Source of the DNA: a virus
Taxonomy: Duplodnaviria; Heunggongvirae; Uroviricota; Caudoviricetes
Virus record (IMG/VR): IMGVR_UViG_2695420480_000001
Length of the DNA: 5,285 nt
Strand: one strand, 5' to 3'
Shown here one piece after another: positions 1 through 5,285 of the stretch (its first letter is position 1; every line of letters begins with the position of its first letter). A program made the position numbers and the translations under genes. The notes under the pieces are model-generated. The model did no database searches. It was not told where the DNA came from and saw only the letters and a program-made list of their open reading frames with translations.

Positions 1-2431
1 CTGAAACGTATTTTGCCTGGTAACGGGCGTCATCAAGTGCATTATGGCGCTCACCTTCGAATGGAATAGCCGTTCTGGCATCGAAGTCTATGGCTTTCCC
101 CAGCTCAACGATTGTGCGTACATCGCGATCGTTGTAGTAACGCCACGGGCAGGGGATCCCCTGCCGTTCGTATGAACGGCGCAAAATCGTGTTGTCGAAG
201 TTGGCTCCATTTCCCCAGACCTGAACAAAAAATTCACCGGAGTTTTCGTCGATAAATTCCCGCAATTGTAACAGTGCATCATCTAACGGGATTTCATCGG
301 TCATAATGGCAGATTGCGCTTCGCGTGATTGCTTAAGCCACCATTTAATGGTGTCCCGATCAATGACTCCGCCAGCAGTTTCCAGATCGATAGTCTTACT
401 AAATTCCGGTCCCATATCTCCGGTTTGCGGATCGAAAAATATTGCACCTATTGAGATGATCGGGGCATCAGGATTTTTTCCCATGGTTTCAAGGTCGATC
501 ATTAGATGGTCACACGTCCTGCTGGTGGATGTGATTTCTTGATGACCGTTCACCTTAATTGAGTGATCTGCCGTCTCGCCAGTTCCATTATCGCTATCGT
601 GATGCTGATTGCCGCCAGTGTTCTCCTTGTGTGGATGTTCAGCGCCTTCCATTTTCTCCGGATCATCTTCCTGAACTTCAACCTGATACTCTTCATCGAA
701 TGTTTCCTGGTATGTTGCGTCGCCCATCACTGCGCCACAATCAGGGCAGTTGCCGCCGCCGGTCTGACCGCAGGCGGTGCAGACTTTTTCCACTTCCTGT
801 TGCGCCACTGGTTCAGGCTGTTTCGTTTCTGGCTCGTTTTGTAACGCATTTGGGCTGTTTTGTTCCGCTTTTTGGTAGTTCCGTTCCGATTCATGCTGGT
901 TCTGGTTTACAGAATCGCGGGTCTGGATCCCCTTAACCCATTTCGGATCATTCGGGTCGCTAATCCCTGCAACAAATTCTCCGCGAGAGGCAGCAAGCAA
1001 CTTATCGGCGTCAGGCTGGCTGATATTGGCTGCCTGCATAATTTTGTTTACTTCGTCAGCGGTAACTTTTACCGGCTCTGGTTGTGCGGTCGTGTCAGAT
1101 GCACCAGTATTTTGTTGTGAACCTGAGTATGTACTGTTTTTGCGGGCGAAATATTCTTCTTTCGTGATTTCAGTAGCCCCGGCAGCCAGTGCCTTATCCA
1201 GACCAGAAAGTTTGTTTGCGCGACCGTATTTTTCGCCATCCTTGTCGGTGAAGAGGAAGTAGAACGGCCCCTCACGCTCTACAGATGGTTCGACTTCCAC
1301 TTTGCATTCGGTTTTTTCGTTGTCCGGAATTGCCGTTTCCACTGCATCAGTTTCTGGTACTGACGACGAGAGAGTATCAGTTGCGCTCTGATTTGTTCCT
1401 TCATCTTCAAACACGCCCTTTGTAGTCAGGTATTCAGTAATGTATTTGTTCAGTGCCACAGGGTCTTTGTGAATGTCGATCGGACGTTCACGGACAAGGC
1501 CAAAAATAGTCTGGCGGTCGTAGCGAAGGGCATCAGGCTGTTTGCGCATTGATGCCGAGATACGCTTCCAGTCTTCGCGGTCGTTGTCGATAACTTCATT
1601 TTTTGCCCAGCGATGGATGCTGCCGTCAATGTTTCCGGCATCCACATCACCAGGCCAGAGAGCGTAGGCCAGTTCGTCATCCAGTGTTTTCCATGTCTGC
1701 TTGTATTCGCGATGAATGGCAGCAATGACCAGGCTGATTTTTCCTGTTGAATTTTCAGTGTGCTGTTGATTGACTCTGGCGCGGGCGAGATCAACAACAG
1801 ACGTGTATTTTCCGGTTTCCTTGCGTTCACCTTCGCGACGTTTTTTCCAGATGCGCATCTCTGCCTGAATTTCGGGCCATTTGGCACCAGGCTTACATTT
1901 ATGCTTAACCCACCCGATGGCATGCAGCTTAAGCTCCGGATACATGGCGTTAACTTCTGGCATTTTCATCAACGCTTCAACGATATGTCCGTTGAATGTT
2001 GCCATGTCTTCCTGCAACAATTCCTGTGCGCTAATAACCATATCAACGGTGATGTTTTCACATGTGTCGAACTTAACCATGAGAGCGTTCTGTACTTCAG
2101 GGGCCAGCTTGTCAAAAGTGACGTTCATCAGATCGGATTCAGTCTCAACCGGGACAAAAGAAGCAGAATCCTCATCCCAGCGGTTTTCCTGCATATATTC
2201 AGCATCCCATGAATCGAGGGCAGGGCGGGGTATGCCAGGTTTATCCTCGCAGATAATAAATTTATAAGCGCAGTCCTGAGCAGCCGGATAATGTTCCAGG
2301 AATTGCCAGTGAAATTTTGCTCGAGCACGGCGTTCGTCGCCAGCTTCAATAGCTGTGGCTACAGCCACAGCGCCTTCTTCCCTTGTTGCCAGTTCGTCAG
2401 GAATGGCGGCGCAAATAAAGACTTTACTCAT
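1..2431 (-). CDS. Exonuclease VIII-like (RecE/YdfE-family) prophage recombination protein with a C-terminal DnaQ-like DEDDh 3'-5' exonuclease domain; 5' end complete, 3' end beyond window start (about 810 codons present)
   Basis: ATG at 2431-2429 (minus) with GAGG 10 nt upstream (revcomp of 2442-2445) and an in-frame TAA just upstream (2440-2438). The frame stays open to position 1; the track omits it because it is edge-truncated, and the listed minus ORFs (88..282, 1069..1275, 1450..1923, 2128..2349) are all in a different frame. Hand translation starts [20 protein letters not shown]. It contains [25 protein letters not shown] and a Cys cluster [16 protein letters not shown] (about 736-783), both of which I recall from Rac RecE (unverified memory). 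The C-terminal part carries DEDDh motifs: DLET (485-496), NGANFD, and HNALDDA (26-46). Codon usage is E. coli-like. Confidence 0.8.
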
Positions 2432-2524
2432 TTTGTTTTAACCTCATGACAGATTTAAGGATGAACAAATCCCTGCCATTGCTGGCATATAAGAATGAAA
2501 CCGGATATTTATTACGGAACTGTT

Positions 2525-2716
2525 TTAAAGACCTGCCGGGATTTCGATATTATCCTGGTGAATAACTTTATCGACCGGGTAACAGTTACCGGGAATTTTC
2601 TGTTCGGTTGCTGCAGTCATACACTCCTGCATTGTCCTGTGAACACTGACTGCAATATCAACTGGCTCTCCGGAAACAAGAAAAACTGTCAGAACAAGTG
2701 CAAATGCTGTATTCAT
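2525..2716 (-). CDS. ydfD: YdfD-like small lysis/membrane protein (63 aa) with N-terminal hydrophobic helix
   Basis: ATG at 2716-2714 overlaps the TGA stop of the upstream gene (ATGA overlap); AGGA lies 8 nt upstream. 63 codons to TAA at 2527-2525. Product: MNTAFALVLTVFLVSGEPVDIAVSVHRTMQECMTAATEQKIPGNCYPVDKVIHQDNIEIPAGL. Size and position (immediately after dicB, before the exonuclease gene) match ydfD of the Qin prophage as I remember it. The track's longer 81-aa version (start 2770) has no RBS. Confidence 0.6.
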   Translation of the reverse strand: MNTAFALVLTVFLVSGEPVDIAVSVHRTMQECMTAATEQKIPGNCYPVDKVIHQDNIEIPAGL

Positions 2717-2901
2717 TGCCAGCATCCTTTTTGTATCGGACGTAAACGGGCCAGCATTGAAAGAATGCATATTTTATTTAATAACTCCCGTTCGTGTTTT
2801 CTCTTGTTAATGGCATCTTCAGTAAATACAGGGTTACTGATAGTGACACCAATTTCAAAACAACCTTCAGACGTATTAACGTTTGGTAATAACGTTTCCA
2901 T
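2713..2901 (-). CDS. dicB: DicB, prophage-encoded cell-division inhibitor (62 aa)
   Basis: ATG at 2901-2899 with GAGGA 7 nt upstream (revcomp of 2909-2913); 62 codons to TGA at 2715-2713. Product: METLLPNVNTSEGCFEIGVTISNPVFTEDAINKRKHERELLNKICILSMLARLRPIQKGCWQ, which I recognise as DicB (62 aa, N-terminus METLLPNVNTSEGCFEIGV). The track's 97-aa ORF 2713..3006 is the same frame extended to an upstream GTG without an RBS. Confidence 0.85.
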   Translation of the reverse strand: METLLPNVNTSEGCFEIGVTISNPVFTEDAINKRKHERELLNKICILSMLARLRPIQKGCWQ

Positions 2902-2937
2902 TATCGCGTCCTCAACAATGAATTTTGTGATGCGGTG

Positions 2938-2977
2938 CCTGGTGCCTCCAGGTGACGTTAACCAGTTAACAATTAAC
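2938..2977 (-). repeat. Structured element in the dicF-dicB spacer: CCTGG-N5-CCAGG inverted repeat (2938-2952) next to three TTAAC direct repeats (2958-2962, 2966-2970, 2973-2977)
   Basis: Direct reading: cctggtgcctccagg, then gttaaccagttaacaattaac. It lies 40-75 nt upstream of the dicB start codon, in the transcribed spacer. Function unknown (RNA leader structure or protein-binding site). Confidence 0.3.
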
Positions 2978-3070
2978 GCCGGATACAGAGAATCCACCCA
3001 TAACACTGTTTTTGGTTTTAACTGTTCCGCGTGCGCTGAGCCGCATTCACCGCATCACAAAATTCACTTT

Positions 3071-3113
3071 AAAAAGGGCGGCAGAGCAGCCACGGAGTAA
3101 AACTGATACCGCC
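3071..3113 (-). terminator. DicF 3' stem-loop / intrinsic terminator (GGCGG..CAGU / GCUG..CCGCC then U5)
   Basis: On the minus strand, GGCGG (revcomp of 3109-3113) pairs with CCGCC (revcomp of 3077-3081), with an inner CAGU/GCUG helix, followed by UUUUU (revcomp of 3071-3075). dicB lies downstream, so read-through must occur. Confidence 0.5.
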
Positions 3114-3128
3114 AAACGTCACCAGAAA
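3074..3128 (-). ncRNA. dicF: DicF small regulatory RNA (ftsZ-targeting sRNA of the dicB operon)
   Basis: Revcomp of 3071..3128 reads UUUCUGGUGACGUUUGGCGGUAUCAGUUUUACUCCGUGGCUGCUCUGCCGCCCUUUUU. This matches the roughly 53-nt DicF sequence as I remember it, apart from one position (GUGGCUG here, GUGACUG recalled). It ends in a GC-rich interrupted stem plus a U-run, and lies directly upstream of dicB on the same strand as in Qin. The exact ends are not determinable from sequence. Confidence 0.8.
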
Positions 3129-3153
3129 ATTGATAACAGAGGGCGTTGCAGCG

Positions 3154-3190
3154 GGGTTGTCACTTAAGCGTATGGTCAACCTGACAACCC
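3154..3190 (-). repeat. Perfect 9-bp inverted repeat GGGTTGTCA-N19-TGACAACCC, 26-62 nt upstream of the DicF 5' end
   Basis: 3154-3162 gggttgtca and 3182-3190 tgacaaccc are exact reverse complements. In a minus-strand transcript this would form a 9-bp stem with a 19-nt loop just 5' of DicF. Confidence 0.35.
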
Positions 3191-3627
3191 GATGTCCTCA
3201 ACGGGGAAGGAATAACCCCGCCATACTTACCGCCGCGCCATTTCGCGGAGTGCCACAACCGGAAGCGCACGGTCGACGAAAATTTAACGACAGGTTATCT
3301 ATGAACCAGCTACCTCGCCGTGCGCTTTCGCGTTATGGTCTGACTTTTCATGGAAATATCCTTTCAGTAAACTGTCAGTGCCGGATGCTCACCCGTGTCC
3401 GGCGCACGCACTCCACCTCACCCGTGGAGAACTCCTTAATTACCAACCTTAGCTTCGTTGGTTAGCTATTAACGCGGGTAAAAGAGGATGACCCACGTAA
3501 TCAGGTTAATTTTCTTTATGAGCCATCGGAAAGACCATATTGTCATCACGCCTCTGTCCGGGTTGACGAAAAAGAGCGTCAGGTCCGCTGTAAAATCTGC
3601 GGTGCAGTTGTGGAGCCATTTGACTGG

Positions 3628-3786
3628 ATGCTCTCTGTGGCGAAAAGAGAAACCAGACTGGCAGATGATGTAAGGCTCTTGCGCCAGGAGGAACGGGAAA
3701 GGCGGAGAAATATAGAAAAGCTAATTCAGATTGAGCGTAACGCGAAAGCGCGGATACGCAGGGCGGCAAAATCAAGAACTGAATAA
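3628..3786 (+). CDS. Hypothetical small basic/charged helical protein (52 aa from ATG 3628, or 58 aa from GTG 3610); start uncertain, possibly a 5'-truncated remnant
   Basis: The frame is open from 3466 to TAA at 3784-3786. The C-terminal part MLSVAKRETRLADDVRLLRQEERERRRNIEKLIQIERNAKARIRRAAKSRTE looks protein-like (charged, coiled-coil-like). Upstream in the same frame is a Cys/His cluster (PYCHHASV...RCKICG) but no canonical start. The only RBS-like site for ATG 3628 is GGAG 12 nt upstream (weak). It is below the track's length cutoff, and the overlapping track ORF 3488..3673 is in another frame. Confidence 0.3.
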   Translation: MLSVAKRETRLADDVRLLRQEERERRRNIEKLIQIERNAKARIRRAAKSRTE

Positions 3787-3820
3787 TTAAATTTAGCACT
3801 GTTAAAAATTTAATCCTTAA
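3786..3820 (+). promoter_or_regulatory. AT-rich candidate promoter region for the 3866..4311 cassette (weak -35/-10-like hexamers, e.g. tttaat at 3809-3814)
   Basis: An AT-rich stretch (aataattaaatttagcactgttaaaaatttaatcc) sits directly upstream of a strongly RBS-equipped gene. No convincing sigma70 consensus was found, so this is a low-confidence placement. Confidence 0.2.
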
Positions 3821-3865
3821 CCGGAGGGATTTCTGCACCCTCAGAACATCAGGAGGCCGTTCGAA

Positions 3866-4147
3866 ATGGCGGTACTGCGTAATCAGCCTGCGCTGTACGC
3901 GTTTACGTCAGAAATTAATGCGATTAGCGCAACCATTATCGGTCAGCTGGATACGAACTTTAAAACTGGTCGTCGTGCGGCGTTACGTGAGATCGAGGAT
4001 GTGAAACACGATACGCGTGAAGCGGAAGATGTGCTGGATGTGGCGGTGGCCATTGCGGAGGCAGACGGCGAAATTGAGCCGGAAGAGCGCAAGGTGCTGG
4101 AAGAGATTGCCGGTGTTCTGGGTCTTCGTCTGGAGAATTACCTGTGA
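3866..4147 (+). CDS. TerB-like (tellurite-resistance TerB / DjlA-N-type fold) small acidic protein, 93 aa
   Basis: ATG 3866 with AGGAGG at 3851-3856 (9-nt spacer); 93 codons to TGA 4145-4147; strong E. coli codon bias (ctg, gcg, cgt). Product: MAVLRNQPALYAFTSEINAISATIIGQLDTNFKTGRRAALREIEDVKHDTREAEDVLDVAVAIAEADGEIEPEERKVLEEIAGVLGLRLENYL. The C-terminal motif AEADGEIEPEERKVLEEIAGVLGL resembles the TerB-family signature (ADG..E..L..LGL) as I remember it; no search was run. Confidence 0.8.
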   Translation: MAVLRNQPALYAFTSEINAISATIIGQLDTNFKTGRRAALREIEDVKHDTREAEDVLDVAVAIAEADGEIEPEERKVLEEIAGVLGLRLENYL

Positions 4148-4311
4148 CGGTAAAACTGCGCCTGACTGTGGCTGCACTCCTGCTGTTTCTGGTGGTGATG
4201 GTGGATTTCACCAGCAGAATCATGTCGGTGCTGGCGGATGGGGTGCTGGTCTGCGGCATTATGGTATTGCTGTGGCCGGTGATAAAAAGAAACAGCCTGC
4301 ATAATGCTTGA
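4144..4311 (+). CDS. Small two-helix membrane protein (55 aa), translationally coupled to the TerB-like gene
   Basis: GTG 4144-4146 overlaps the upstream TGA (GTGA overlap) with GGAG 8 nt upstream (4132-4135). 55 codons to TGA 4309-4311. Product: MTVKLRLTVAALLLFLVVMVDFTSRIMSVLADGVLVCGIMVLLWPVIKRNSLHNA, with two hydrophobic segments and a basic C-terminus. The alternative ATG start at codon 19 would give 37 aa. The track's 4017..4304 ORF is an off-frame shadow. Confidence 0.6.
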   Translation: MTVKLRLTVAALLLFLVVMVDFTSRIMSVLADGVLVCGIMVLLWPVIKRNSLHNA

Positions 4312-4512
4312 TTTTTTTGTTTGCTGTTTATTAAAAACACTTCTGCATGGTGAATCCCCCTGTGCGGTGGGGCAATCAGCAAGAAGGAATATGGGGTAAT
4401 CGCGGATTCAGGTGCTGATACTGAATTCACCGGGAGGCACCCGGCACCATGCTTTGCCACAAAAGTGTTATTTCTGTTTTTCTCAAACTATCATCGTTAT
4501 CCCTTTATTTTC

Positions 4513-4539
4513 GGCTGCGCATGGCGCGGCCTTTTTTTT
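4513..4539 (+). terminator. Rho-independent terminator (8-bp stem GGCUGCGC/GCGCGGCC with one U-G pair, then T8)
   Basis: ggctgcgc atg gcgcggcc followed by tttttttt (4532-4539). The T-run is only on the plus strand, so it is unidirectional. Confidence 0.65.
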
Positions 4540-4634
4540 ACGACCAGCCACTGGCAGATGGTCATCCTGTGATTTGATTCCGCTTCCGGCTTTTTAACTC
4601 TGTTCCTCTAGCCAGGTAACACAGTGTTATGACA

Positions 4635-4660
4635 GCCCGCCGATTCAGGCGGGCTTTTTT
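4635..4660 (+). terminator. Rho-independent terminator (7-bp GC stem GCCCGCC/GGCGGGC, 6-nt loop, T6)
   Basis: gcccgcc gattca ggcgggc tttttt, ending 11 nt before the stf ATG at 4672. Confidence 0.7.
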
Positions 4661-4671
4661 GTGGGGTGAAT

Positions 4672-5285
4672 ATGGCAGTAAAGATTTCAGGTGTGCTGAA
4701 AGACGGCACAGGAAAACCGGTAGAGAACTGCACCATTCAACTGAAAGCCAGACGGACCAGCAGCACGGTGGTGGTGAACACGGTGGCCTCTGAAAATCCG
4801 GATGAAGCCGGTCGTTACAGCATGGACGTTGAGTACGGTCAGTACAGCGTCATTCTGTTGGTGGAAGGATTCCCGCCGTCACATGCCGGGACCATCACCG
4901 TGTATGAAGATTCTCAACCCGGTACGCTGAATGATTTTCTCGGTGCCATGTCGGAGGATGACGTCCGGCCGGAGGCACTGCGTCGTTTTGAACTGATGGT
5001 GGAAGAAGCGGCGCGTCACGCTGAGGAGGCGAAGAAGAATGCCGGAGAGGCGGAGACGTCCGCGAGGAATGCCGGCATATCAGCCAGTCAGGCGGAAGCG
5101 AGCGCGGCAAATGCTGACACTTCAGCAGGGGAGGCATCGGAGTCAGCCCGGCAGGCGGCAGAAAGTGCAGCCGCTGCAAAGAAGTCAGAGGAAGCGTCCT
5201 CGTCCTCGGCCTCTGAGGCCGCTCAAAAAGCCAGTGAGTCATTACAAAGTGCAGCAGATGCTGAGTTGTCAAAAAAGACGGCAGA
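4672..5285 (+). CDS. stf: Side tail fibre protein Stf, N-terminal part (204 codons; continues beyond window end)
   Basis: ATG 4672; product MAVKISGVLKDGTGKPVENCTIQLKARRTSSTVVVNTVASENPDEAGRYSMDVEYGQYSVILLVEGFPPSHAGTITVYEDSQPGTLNDFL..., which is the conserved N-terminus of lambda/Rac/Qin Stf-family side tail fibres (recognised from memory). It is followed by an Ala/Ser/Glu-rich low-complexity shaft region. No stop occurs before the window end; the antisense track ORF 4895..5272 is a shadow. Confidence 0.9.
   Translation, partial: MAVKISGVLKDGTGKPVENCTIQLKARRTSSTVVVNTVASENPDEAGRYSMDVEYGQYSVILLVEGFPPSHAGTITVYEDSQPGTLNDFLGAMSEDDVRPEALRRFELMVEEAARHAEEAKKNAGEAETSARNAGISASQAEASAANADTSAGEASESARQAAESAAAAKKSEEASSSSASEAAQKASESLQSAADAELSKKTA

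Follow-up and report, generated by a model that had tools for sequence, protein, structure and literature searches.

The contig CXZE01000052.1 of draft assembly GCA_001277415.1 is 5,285 nucleotides (nt) long, was analysed whole and is called the window below. It ends inside an exonuclease gene on one side and inside the side tail-fibre gene stf on the other. This locus raises the question of how an early prophage block with the cell-division inhibitor gene dicB and the small RNA DicF came to stand beside a late tail-fibre gene. An earlier note on this DNA had placed the two about 1.5 kb apart, and had read the locus as a deletion-derived or mosaic prophage remnant. By annotation, the distance from DicF (3127) to the stf start (4672) is 1,545 nt, as the note had said. 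In the full-length prophage of Escherichia coli A1 (NZ_CP029328.1, at tRNA-Ser/mtfA) the same spacing is ~38.5 kb, and the repressor/cro switch and the replication, nin, Q, lysis, head and tail genes separate DicF from stf. In the Qin prophage of E. coli K-12, coordinates give 13.5 kb between dicF (1649382) and the stfQ start (1635847), in agreement with the ~14 kb that the note had given. The short spacing is a structural observation, to which a chance statistic is not applicable.

Our comparison with known prophages indicated that the window is very probably the collapsed core of a lambdoid prophage of the Qin or enterohaemorrhagic E. coli (EHEC) type, in which three deletions occurred by illegitimate recombination at microhomologies of 2-4 bp. 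The core reading of the note, a prophage remnant shaped by deletions and unable to make particles, was supported: segments 95-100% identical to those of relatives lie in canonical order and meet at three breakpoints, two of which truncate genes.

Segments and junctions of the window

Segments and breakpoints were defined by blastn against relatives, and each junction was aligned with parental-type sequence on both sides. This gave the following segments and junctions:

1-3480: segment A, from the exonuclease gene to the last 12 nt of ydfC; 99.5% identical to A1
3477-3874: segment B, the 3' part of a gene of family phrog_1621 and the spacer downstream of it; 95% identical to FDAARGOS_1248
3871-4610: segment C, TerB from about codon 52, DUF3927 and STnc100; 100% identical to E2865 and many Shiga toxin-producing E. 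coli (STEC)
4609-5285: segment D, the spacer after the lom stop codon and stf; 95-97% identity
3477-3480: junction J1, microhomology GGTA; left flank ...GCGGGTA, right flank AAAGAGG...
3871-3874: junction J2, microhomology GGTA; left flank ...GGCGGTA, right flank CTGCGTA...
4609-4610: junction J3, microhomology TA; left flank ...CCTCTA, right flank GCCAGG...

J1 fuses the 3' end of ydfC to about codon 17 of the phrog_1621 gene, and J2 fuses the spacer after that gene, in frame, to about codon 52 of TerB. J3 fuses a point 15 nt ahead of the esterase start codon to the first base past the lom stop. Genes are cut at J1 and J2 (ydfC, the phrog_1621 gene and TerB), and J3 is intergenic.

Segments A, C and D are collinear in the A1 prophage, in the same orientation (48473-44993, 34263-33682 and 6955-6279), with gaps of 10.7 and 26.5 kb between them. 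Compared with A1 and Qin, the window shows lambdoid synteny, with the early-left operon divergent from the early-right and late genes and with stf rightmost. Between DicF and stf, it holds only the truncated phrog_1621 gene, a truncated TerB gene (TerB'), DUF3927 and STnc100. A1 shares the left arm at 99.5% identity, but differs from the window in having a complete set of immunity, replication, nin, Q, lysis, head and tail genes, and in carrying a DUF551 gene at the place of segment B. Relative to an A1-like architecture, the DNA lost would be ~5 kb at J1 and ~5 kb at J2 (both estimates, as A1 is without segment B) and ~26.5 kb at J3, a total of ~37 kb.

The ancestor would have had the order int-xis-exonuclease-ydfD-dicB-dicF-ydfCBA-repressor/cro-replication-nin-Q, followed to the right of Q by (tRNAs in some relatives)-TerB-DUF3927-STnc100-esterase-lysis-head-tail-J-lom-stf. 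The deletion at J1 would have removed ydfCBA, the dicBF promoter, the repressor/cro switch, the promoter pR and most replication genes. That at J2 would have taken the remaining early-right and nin region, Q, the promoter pR' and the tRNAs, and that at J3 the esterase, lysis, terminase, head and tail genes, J and lom. On its gene content, the element is predicted to have no means of its own for replication, cell lysis or particle assembly.

Contigs from other sequencing runs bear on the order of these events. The 93-amino-acid (aa) TerB' protein, which is specific to the junction, was present on nine contigs, of which the window itself is the longest. Contigs from DRR567785 and DRR567778 were 100% identical to the window across J1, J2 and J3. 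Those from ERR13952733 and SRR28811060 were 100% identical from 3477 on, and so contain J2 and J3. Upstream of 3477 they carry an intact, native phrog_1621 gene and its DUF977 neighbour, and J1 is absent. Since some strains have J2 and J3 without J1, the two are older than J1, and the proposed sequence of events would be J2 and J3 first and J1 later.

Both J1 and J2 use GGTA, while J3 uses TA. The shared tetranucleotide may have arisen by chance (odds of about 1 in 256 for two junctions, reckoned post hoc) or may reflect the cleavage preference of the agent that broke the DNA. We considered it as a hint of a site-specific mechanism and set it aside as not interpretable, being two observations seen post hoc.

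Deletion weighed against other origins

The phage collection and the 5,426 complete E. coli genomes searched contained none of J1, J2 and J3. In neither set does a record cover 80% or more of the window, or of its part 3300-5285, and the best coverage of the window by a phage record is at most 66%. A 31-mer across J3 and a 25-mer across J2 had no exact match in GTDB species representatives, nor did the J3 31-mer in JGI metagenomes. Could the contig then be a short-read chimera that joins repeats of different prophages? It is a 5.3-kb draft contig whose ends lie in multi-copy prophage genes, and its junctions are missing from every complete genome searched. However, at least four further runs were assembled separately and gave contigs 100% identical to the window at the junctions, and any assembler k-mer is far longer than the 2-4 bp shared there, which cannot give rise to a k-mer mis-join. 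The independent identical contigs rule out an assembly chimera, to which we give next to no credence.

The same recurrence in several samples, together with flanks that lie beyond view, would suit a compact mobile element, a small intact phage or phage satellite, in which these parts are adjacent by design. Such an order, native and conserved in an intact phage type, was what the earlier note had named as the finding that would overturn its reading, and it is contradicted by the data. Two of the three junctions truncate genes that are full length in relatives, and intermediates without J1 exist. The segments are 95-100% identical to standard prophages in which distances of 10.7 and 26.5 kb separate them, and the absence of the junction k-mers from the GTDB and JGI sets and the low phage-record coverage also speak against such an element. 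The truncated genes and the intermediates rule out this origin, which we regard as exceedingly improbable.

Illegitimate joining of different lambdoid prophages within one genome, or of a prophage with the DNA of an infecting phage, is a further alternative, though an unlikely one. The best matches of the segments do differ: A is 99.5% identical to A1, C 100% to E2865 and D 99.9% to D1 and Z1323HEC0010, while B reaches no more than ~97%. The number of places that match window DNA is also high, with a median of 4-5 per E. coli genome and up to 36. However, lambdoid prophages are already mosaics, so differing best matches fit a single parent, and the 2-4 bp of homology is unlike the homologous exchanges that usually make mosaics. 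The four segments also keep the canonical order and orientation, which three random joins would not be expected to give. Because the segments are collinear with the canonical prophage order, internal deletions are favoured over mosaic shuffling. Thus, where the earlier note had left the choice between a deletion-derived and a mosaic element, the deletion part stood and shuffling proved unneeded.

Some points weigh against stepwise deletion of one prophage. Both contig ends lie within genes (exonuclease and stf), so that int, xis, the attachment sites and any right-end cargo are out of view. Among sequenced prophages, none combines the four segments at 99% identity or more, segment B being absent from A1 and at most ~97% identical to any sequence compared. 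Deletion within a prophage is also formally inseparable from illegitimate joining between two similar prophages.

Deletion events of this kind are very common in lambdoid prophages. The majority of EHEC lambdoid prophages have deletions, and among the 18 Sakai prophages, 17 have genetic defects including deletions (Asadulghani et al., PMC2669165). We found comparable independent deletions in O111:H- 11128, where YdaT' is joined to TerB', and in STECUZB006, where TerB' is joined to lom. In the ompW prophage of E2865 the lysis region (lysozyme/antirepressor) jumps to a tail-fibre C-terminal gene and type III secretion system (T3SS) effectors, and in K-12 Qin nohA' is joined to stfQ. Another breakpoint in the late-leader region was seen in O103 RM8385 (L010, 5841-7106), where a prophage truncated just after DUF3927 (with a DUF1737 fragment) abuts the integrase of a second prophage. 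This second prophage bears an exonuclease-dicB arm, and the layout is tandem or chimeric.

Qin-like defective lambdoid prophages are well known, and the window is a more extreme example of them. It shares with K-12 Qin the backbone stf ... Q ... repressor/cro ... ydfABC-dicF-dicB-ydfD-ydfE(exonuclease)-int and its orientation, and homologous DicF, DicB and YdfD. Qin is likewise deletion-derived, its head and tail genes being gone and nohA abutting stfQ. In contrast to the window, which lost these, Qin keeps dicA/dicC, dicBp, ydfABC, rem, relBE, Q and the lysis genes, and its dicBF operon is regulated. Its ydfE is truncated by IS2, whereas the exonuclease gene of the window is intact as far as the contig end. 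The defective lambdoid prophages of EHEC and enteropathogenic E. coli (the Sakai Sp series and the PPompW-type prophages of O26, O111 and O103) match the window at 95-100% DNA identity. They share the int-xis-exonuclease-ydfD-dicB left arm and the late leader Q-(tRNAs in some)-TerB-DUF3927-esterase, and frequently have internal deletions, some ending in the same TerB region. With its three deletions, the window is more reduced than any counterpart in the 5,426 complete genomes searched. Beyond annotation its importance is small; it offers a clean, base-resolved case of stepwise prophage decay, with an intermediate that persists in other isolates.

Genes left between DicF and stf, and their expression

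The space between DicF and stf had been described as filled by non-canonical cargo, which the comparison did not confirm. It contains the following features:

3477-3786, plus strand: remnant of the phrog_1621 gene, function unassigned, with a weak zinc-ribbon match; matches phrog_1621 positions 18-120 of 134
3866-4147, plus strand: truncated open reading frame (ORF) of the TerB family; 93 aa versus 143; matches phrog_632 positions 53-143 of 143 and Pfam TerB 64-109 of 118
4144-4311, plus strand: DUF3927/TciB-like small membrane protein, 55 aa, intact; Pfam DUF3927 E 2e-16, phrog_1470 positions 1-54 of 54
4316-4488, plus strand: STnc100 (PasD-related) prophage small RNA; RF02076 at 100.8 bits, above the gathering threshold of 47
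4513-4531 and a T run to 4540, plus strand: intrinsic terminator after STnc100 (terminator scan)

The phrog_1621 remnant is, from its reading frame, a pseudogene: compared with the intact 118-aa gene on the SRR28811060 contig, its first 16 codons are gone, and an in-frame stop lies just upstream. In relatives this gene belongs to the replication region and directly follows the DUF977 gene. TerB-DUF3927-STnc100 in relatives directly follows the Q antiterminator gene and precedes an esterase of the SASA family (nanS-p-like) and the holin/lysis genes; tRNA genes separate Q from TerB in E2865, STECUZB006 and RM8385. By position, the filler is what is left of the regions that normally intervene, in canonical order and orientation: a remnant of a replication-region gene and a post-Q cassette in the late-leader 'moron' position that is standard in relatives, with no exotic cargo. 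For annotation this means that TerB-DUF3927-STnc100 beside a tail-fibre gene should be read as a late-leader leftover from behind Q and not as novel cargo.

The TerB domain is incomplete, its N-terminal ~50 residues being deleted, also in comparison with the intact TerB of RM8385. The truncated frame starts at a new ATG (3866) with AGGAGG 9 nt upstream. This ATG reads AGG in a comparator of 95% identity (GAAAGGGCGG versus GAAATGGCGG; window 3846-3868), and either existed already as a polymorphism or arose later. In the closest relatives the full-length TerB gene (E2865 5849-6277; A1 33987-34349) already has an internal stop, upstream of the truncation point of the window. TerB therefore decays in many prophages independently of the deletion in the window.

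The earlier note had stated that the element retains division-inhibition and tail-fibre genes. This holds for the ORFs, which are kept; expression probably is not, the native promoters and regulators being deleted. In K-12, DicF and DicB are made solely from a polycistronic mRNA initiated at dicBp, which lies upstream of ydfA and is under DicA repression, and no internal promoter was found (PMC10448788). The window does not have a regulated dicBF operon of this Qin type, as similarity to relatives ends 12 nt into the ydfC 3' end. Only these last 12 nt of ydfC remain (3469-3480; window 3480 corresponds to 11481 of L009, in which ydfC is 11470-11688). Upstream of them, the remainder of ydfC was lost together with ydfB, ydfA, the repressor and the dicBp-type promoter. 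No repressor or helix-turn-helix gene is present among the window genes. The dicBF block has lost its native promoter because J1 took everything upstream of the ydfC 3' end, repressor and promoter alike. Loss of the repressor would be tolerable despite the toxicity of DicB and DicF because the only known promoter of dicBF went with it, and the window illustrates this constraint on deletions in such prophages. TerB'-DUF3927 and stf are likewise without a native promoter, since pR was lost at J1 and Q and pR' at J2. Two intrinsic terminators precede stf, one after STnc100 and the lom terminator. A crude scan of 2400-4750 for promoter consensus sequences gave four weak matches versus 3.0 +/- 2.0 expected, no excess over chance.

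The dicF-dicB-ydfD-exonuclease block is thus probably silent, although its ORFs are intact. The case for silence draws on the biology of K-12 Qin and on the crude scan, and read-through or weak new promoters are conceivable; J2 also gave the truncated TerB a well-placed ATG and Shine-Dalgarno sequence. These points count against a fully silent remnant. STnc100 is treated in the literature as an autonomous small RNA gene, and its family context has been described (bioRxiv 10.64898/2026.05.13.724894). Given a promoter of its own, the STnc100 RNA alone may still be made.

We think it quite doubtful that the remnant is a selected minimal cargo carrier, in which the STnc100/PasD-type RNA, the TciB-like DUF3927 protein, the restarted TerB fragment and possibly effectors behind stf are kept for the benefit of the host. 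If it were, the promoterless, intact dicF-dicB-ydfD-exonuclease block would be a reservoir, to be reactivated or mobilised by recombination with co-resident prophages.

The tail-fibre gene and the exonuclease-DicF arm

The right end of the window consists of the tail-fibre block:

4611-4671, plus strand: native lom-stf intergenic region; 96.8% identical to STECUZB006 from 6872 onward, just past the lom stop at 6870
4634-4655 and a T run to 4661, plus strand: lom terminator (terminator scan)
4672-5285, plus strand: side tail-fibre gene stf, N-terminal 204 codons, running off the contig end; Pfam phage_tail_N 1-133 of 134, E 1e-69

The DRR567785 contig (L005) lengthens stf by 456 nt, and the extended stf stretch (1,133 nt, L005 1654-2786) is 99.9% identical to the stf of E. 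coli D1 and Z1323HEC0010. In these closest relatives it is not pin/tfa that follows stf, but a gene for a tail-fibre C-terminus and T3SS effector genes (nleB, espK). In K-12 Qin, pinQ/tfaQ stand beside stfQ; this is a feature of Qin, and the window ends inside stf.

The left arm, on the minus strand throughout, consists of the following:

1-2431: exonuclease gene of the YdfE family, 810 of ~823 codons; the 3' end is off the contig and there is no stop codon
2525-2716: ydfD (DUF1482, named 'lysis protein YdfD' by RefSeq in relatives), 63 aa, intact; Pfam DUF1482 1-57 of 57, E 2e-26
2713-2901: dicB, cell-division inhibitor, 62 aa, intact; Pfam DicB 1-62 of 62, E 2e-37
2869-3078: dicF-dicB spacer and dicB leader; sub-threshold STnc100 match, RF02076 at 37.7 bits versus gathering threshold 47, E 1e-5
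3127-3076: DicF small RNA and intrinsic terminator; Rfam RF00039, 75 bits versus gathering threshold 48, full length (1-52 of 52)
3128-3480: native DNA upstream of DicF, precursor and processing region; 99.5% identical to E. coli A1 as far as 3480

The exonuclease gene had been taken as part of a recombination (exo/recE) module, and this part of the earlier description was not supported. The C-terminal domain of the product is a DEDD 3'-5' exonuclease of the Rv2179c-like type (Pfam E 1e-65, residues 642-810), and its only Pfam domains are Rv2179c-like and RNase_T, both DEDD 3'-5' exonuclease domains. It matches phrog_2082 'exonuclease' over 1-810 of 823, with YdfE_N/YdfE_C in its record, and differs from the E. 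coli A1 copy by 7 nt and 4 aa. No RecE, YqaJ or lambda-Exo nuclease domain was detected in it by Pfam search, and no RecT/Bet gene lies between the exonuclease gene and ydfD, the adjacent genes being ydfD and dicB. The window therefore has neither the domain nor the partner gene of a RecE/RecT or lambda Exo/Bet module. The PHROG search gave a weak match to 'exonuclease VIII' as well, partial in extent (phrog_412, E 1e-16, residues 453-589); the two may thus share a non-catalytic region. In these prophages the gene is commonly annotated 'exonuclease VIII / RecE-like', and it has the DEDD domain and YdfE_N/YdfE_C without a RecE domain. This large exonuclease should not carry the name RecE. In relatives, xis and int lie immediately to the left of the gene.

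DicF scored above the gathering threshold of its covariance model over the full model, and the terminator scan placed a terminator-like hairpin at 3093-3078 on the minus strand. The STnc100-like element in the dicB leader overlaps the dicB start codon, and its counterpart in K-12 Qin (L016, 19433-19642) scored 34.4 bits. The similarity suggests that the dicB leader may be a diverged paralogue of the late-region STnc100/PasD RNA, of which 4316-4488 is the full copy.

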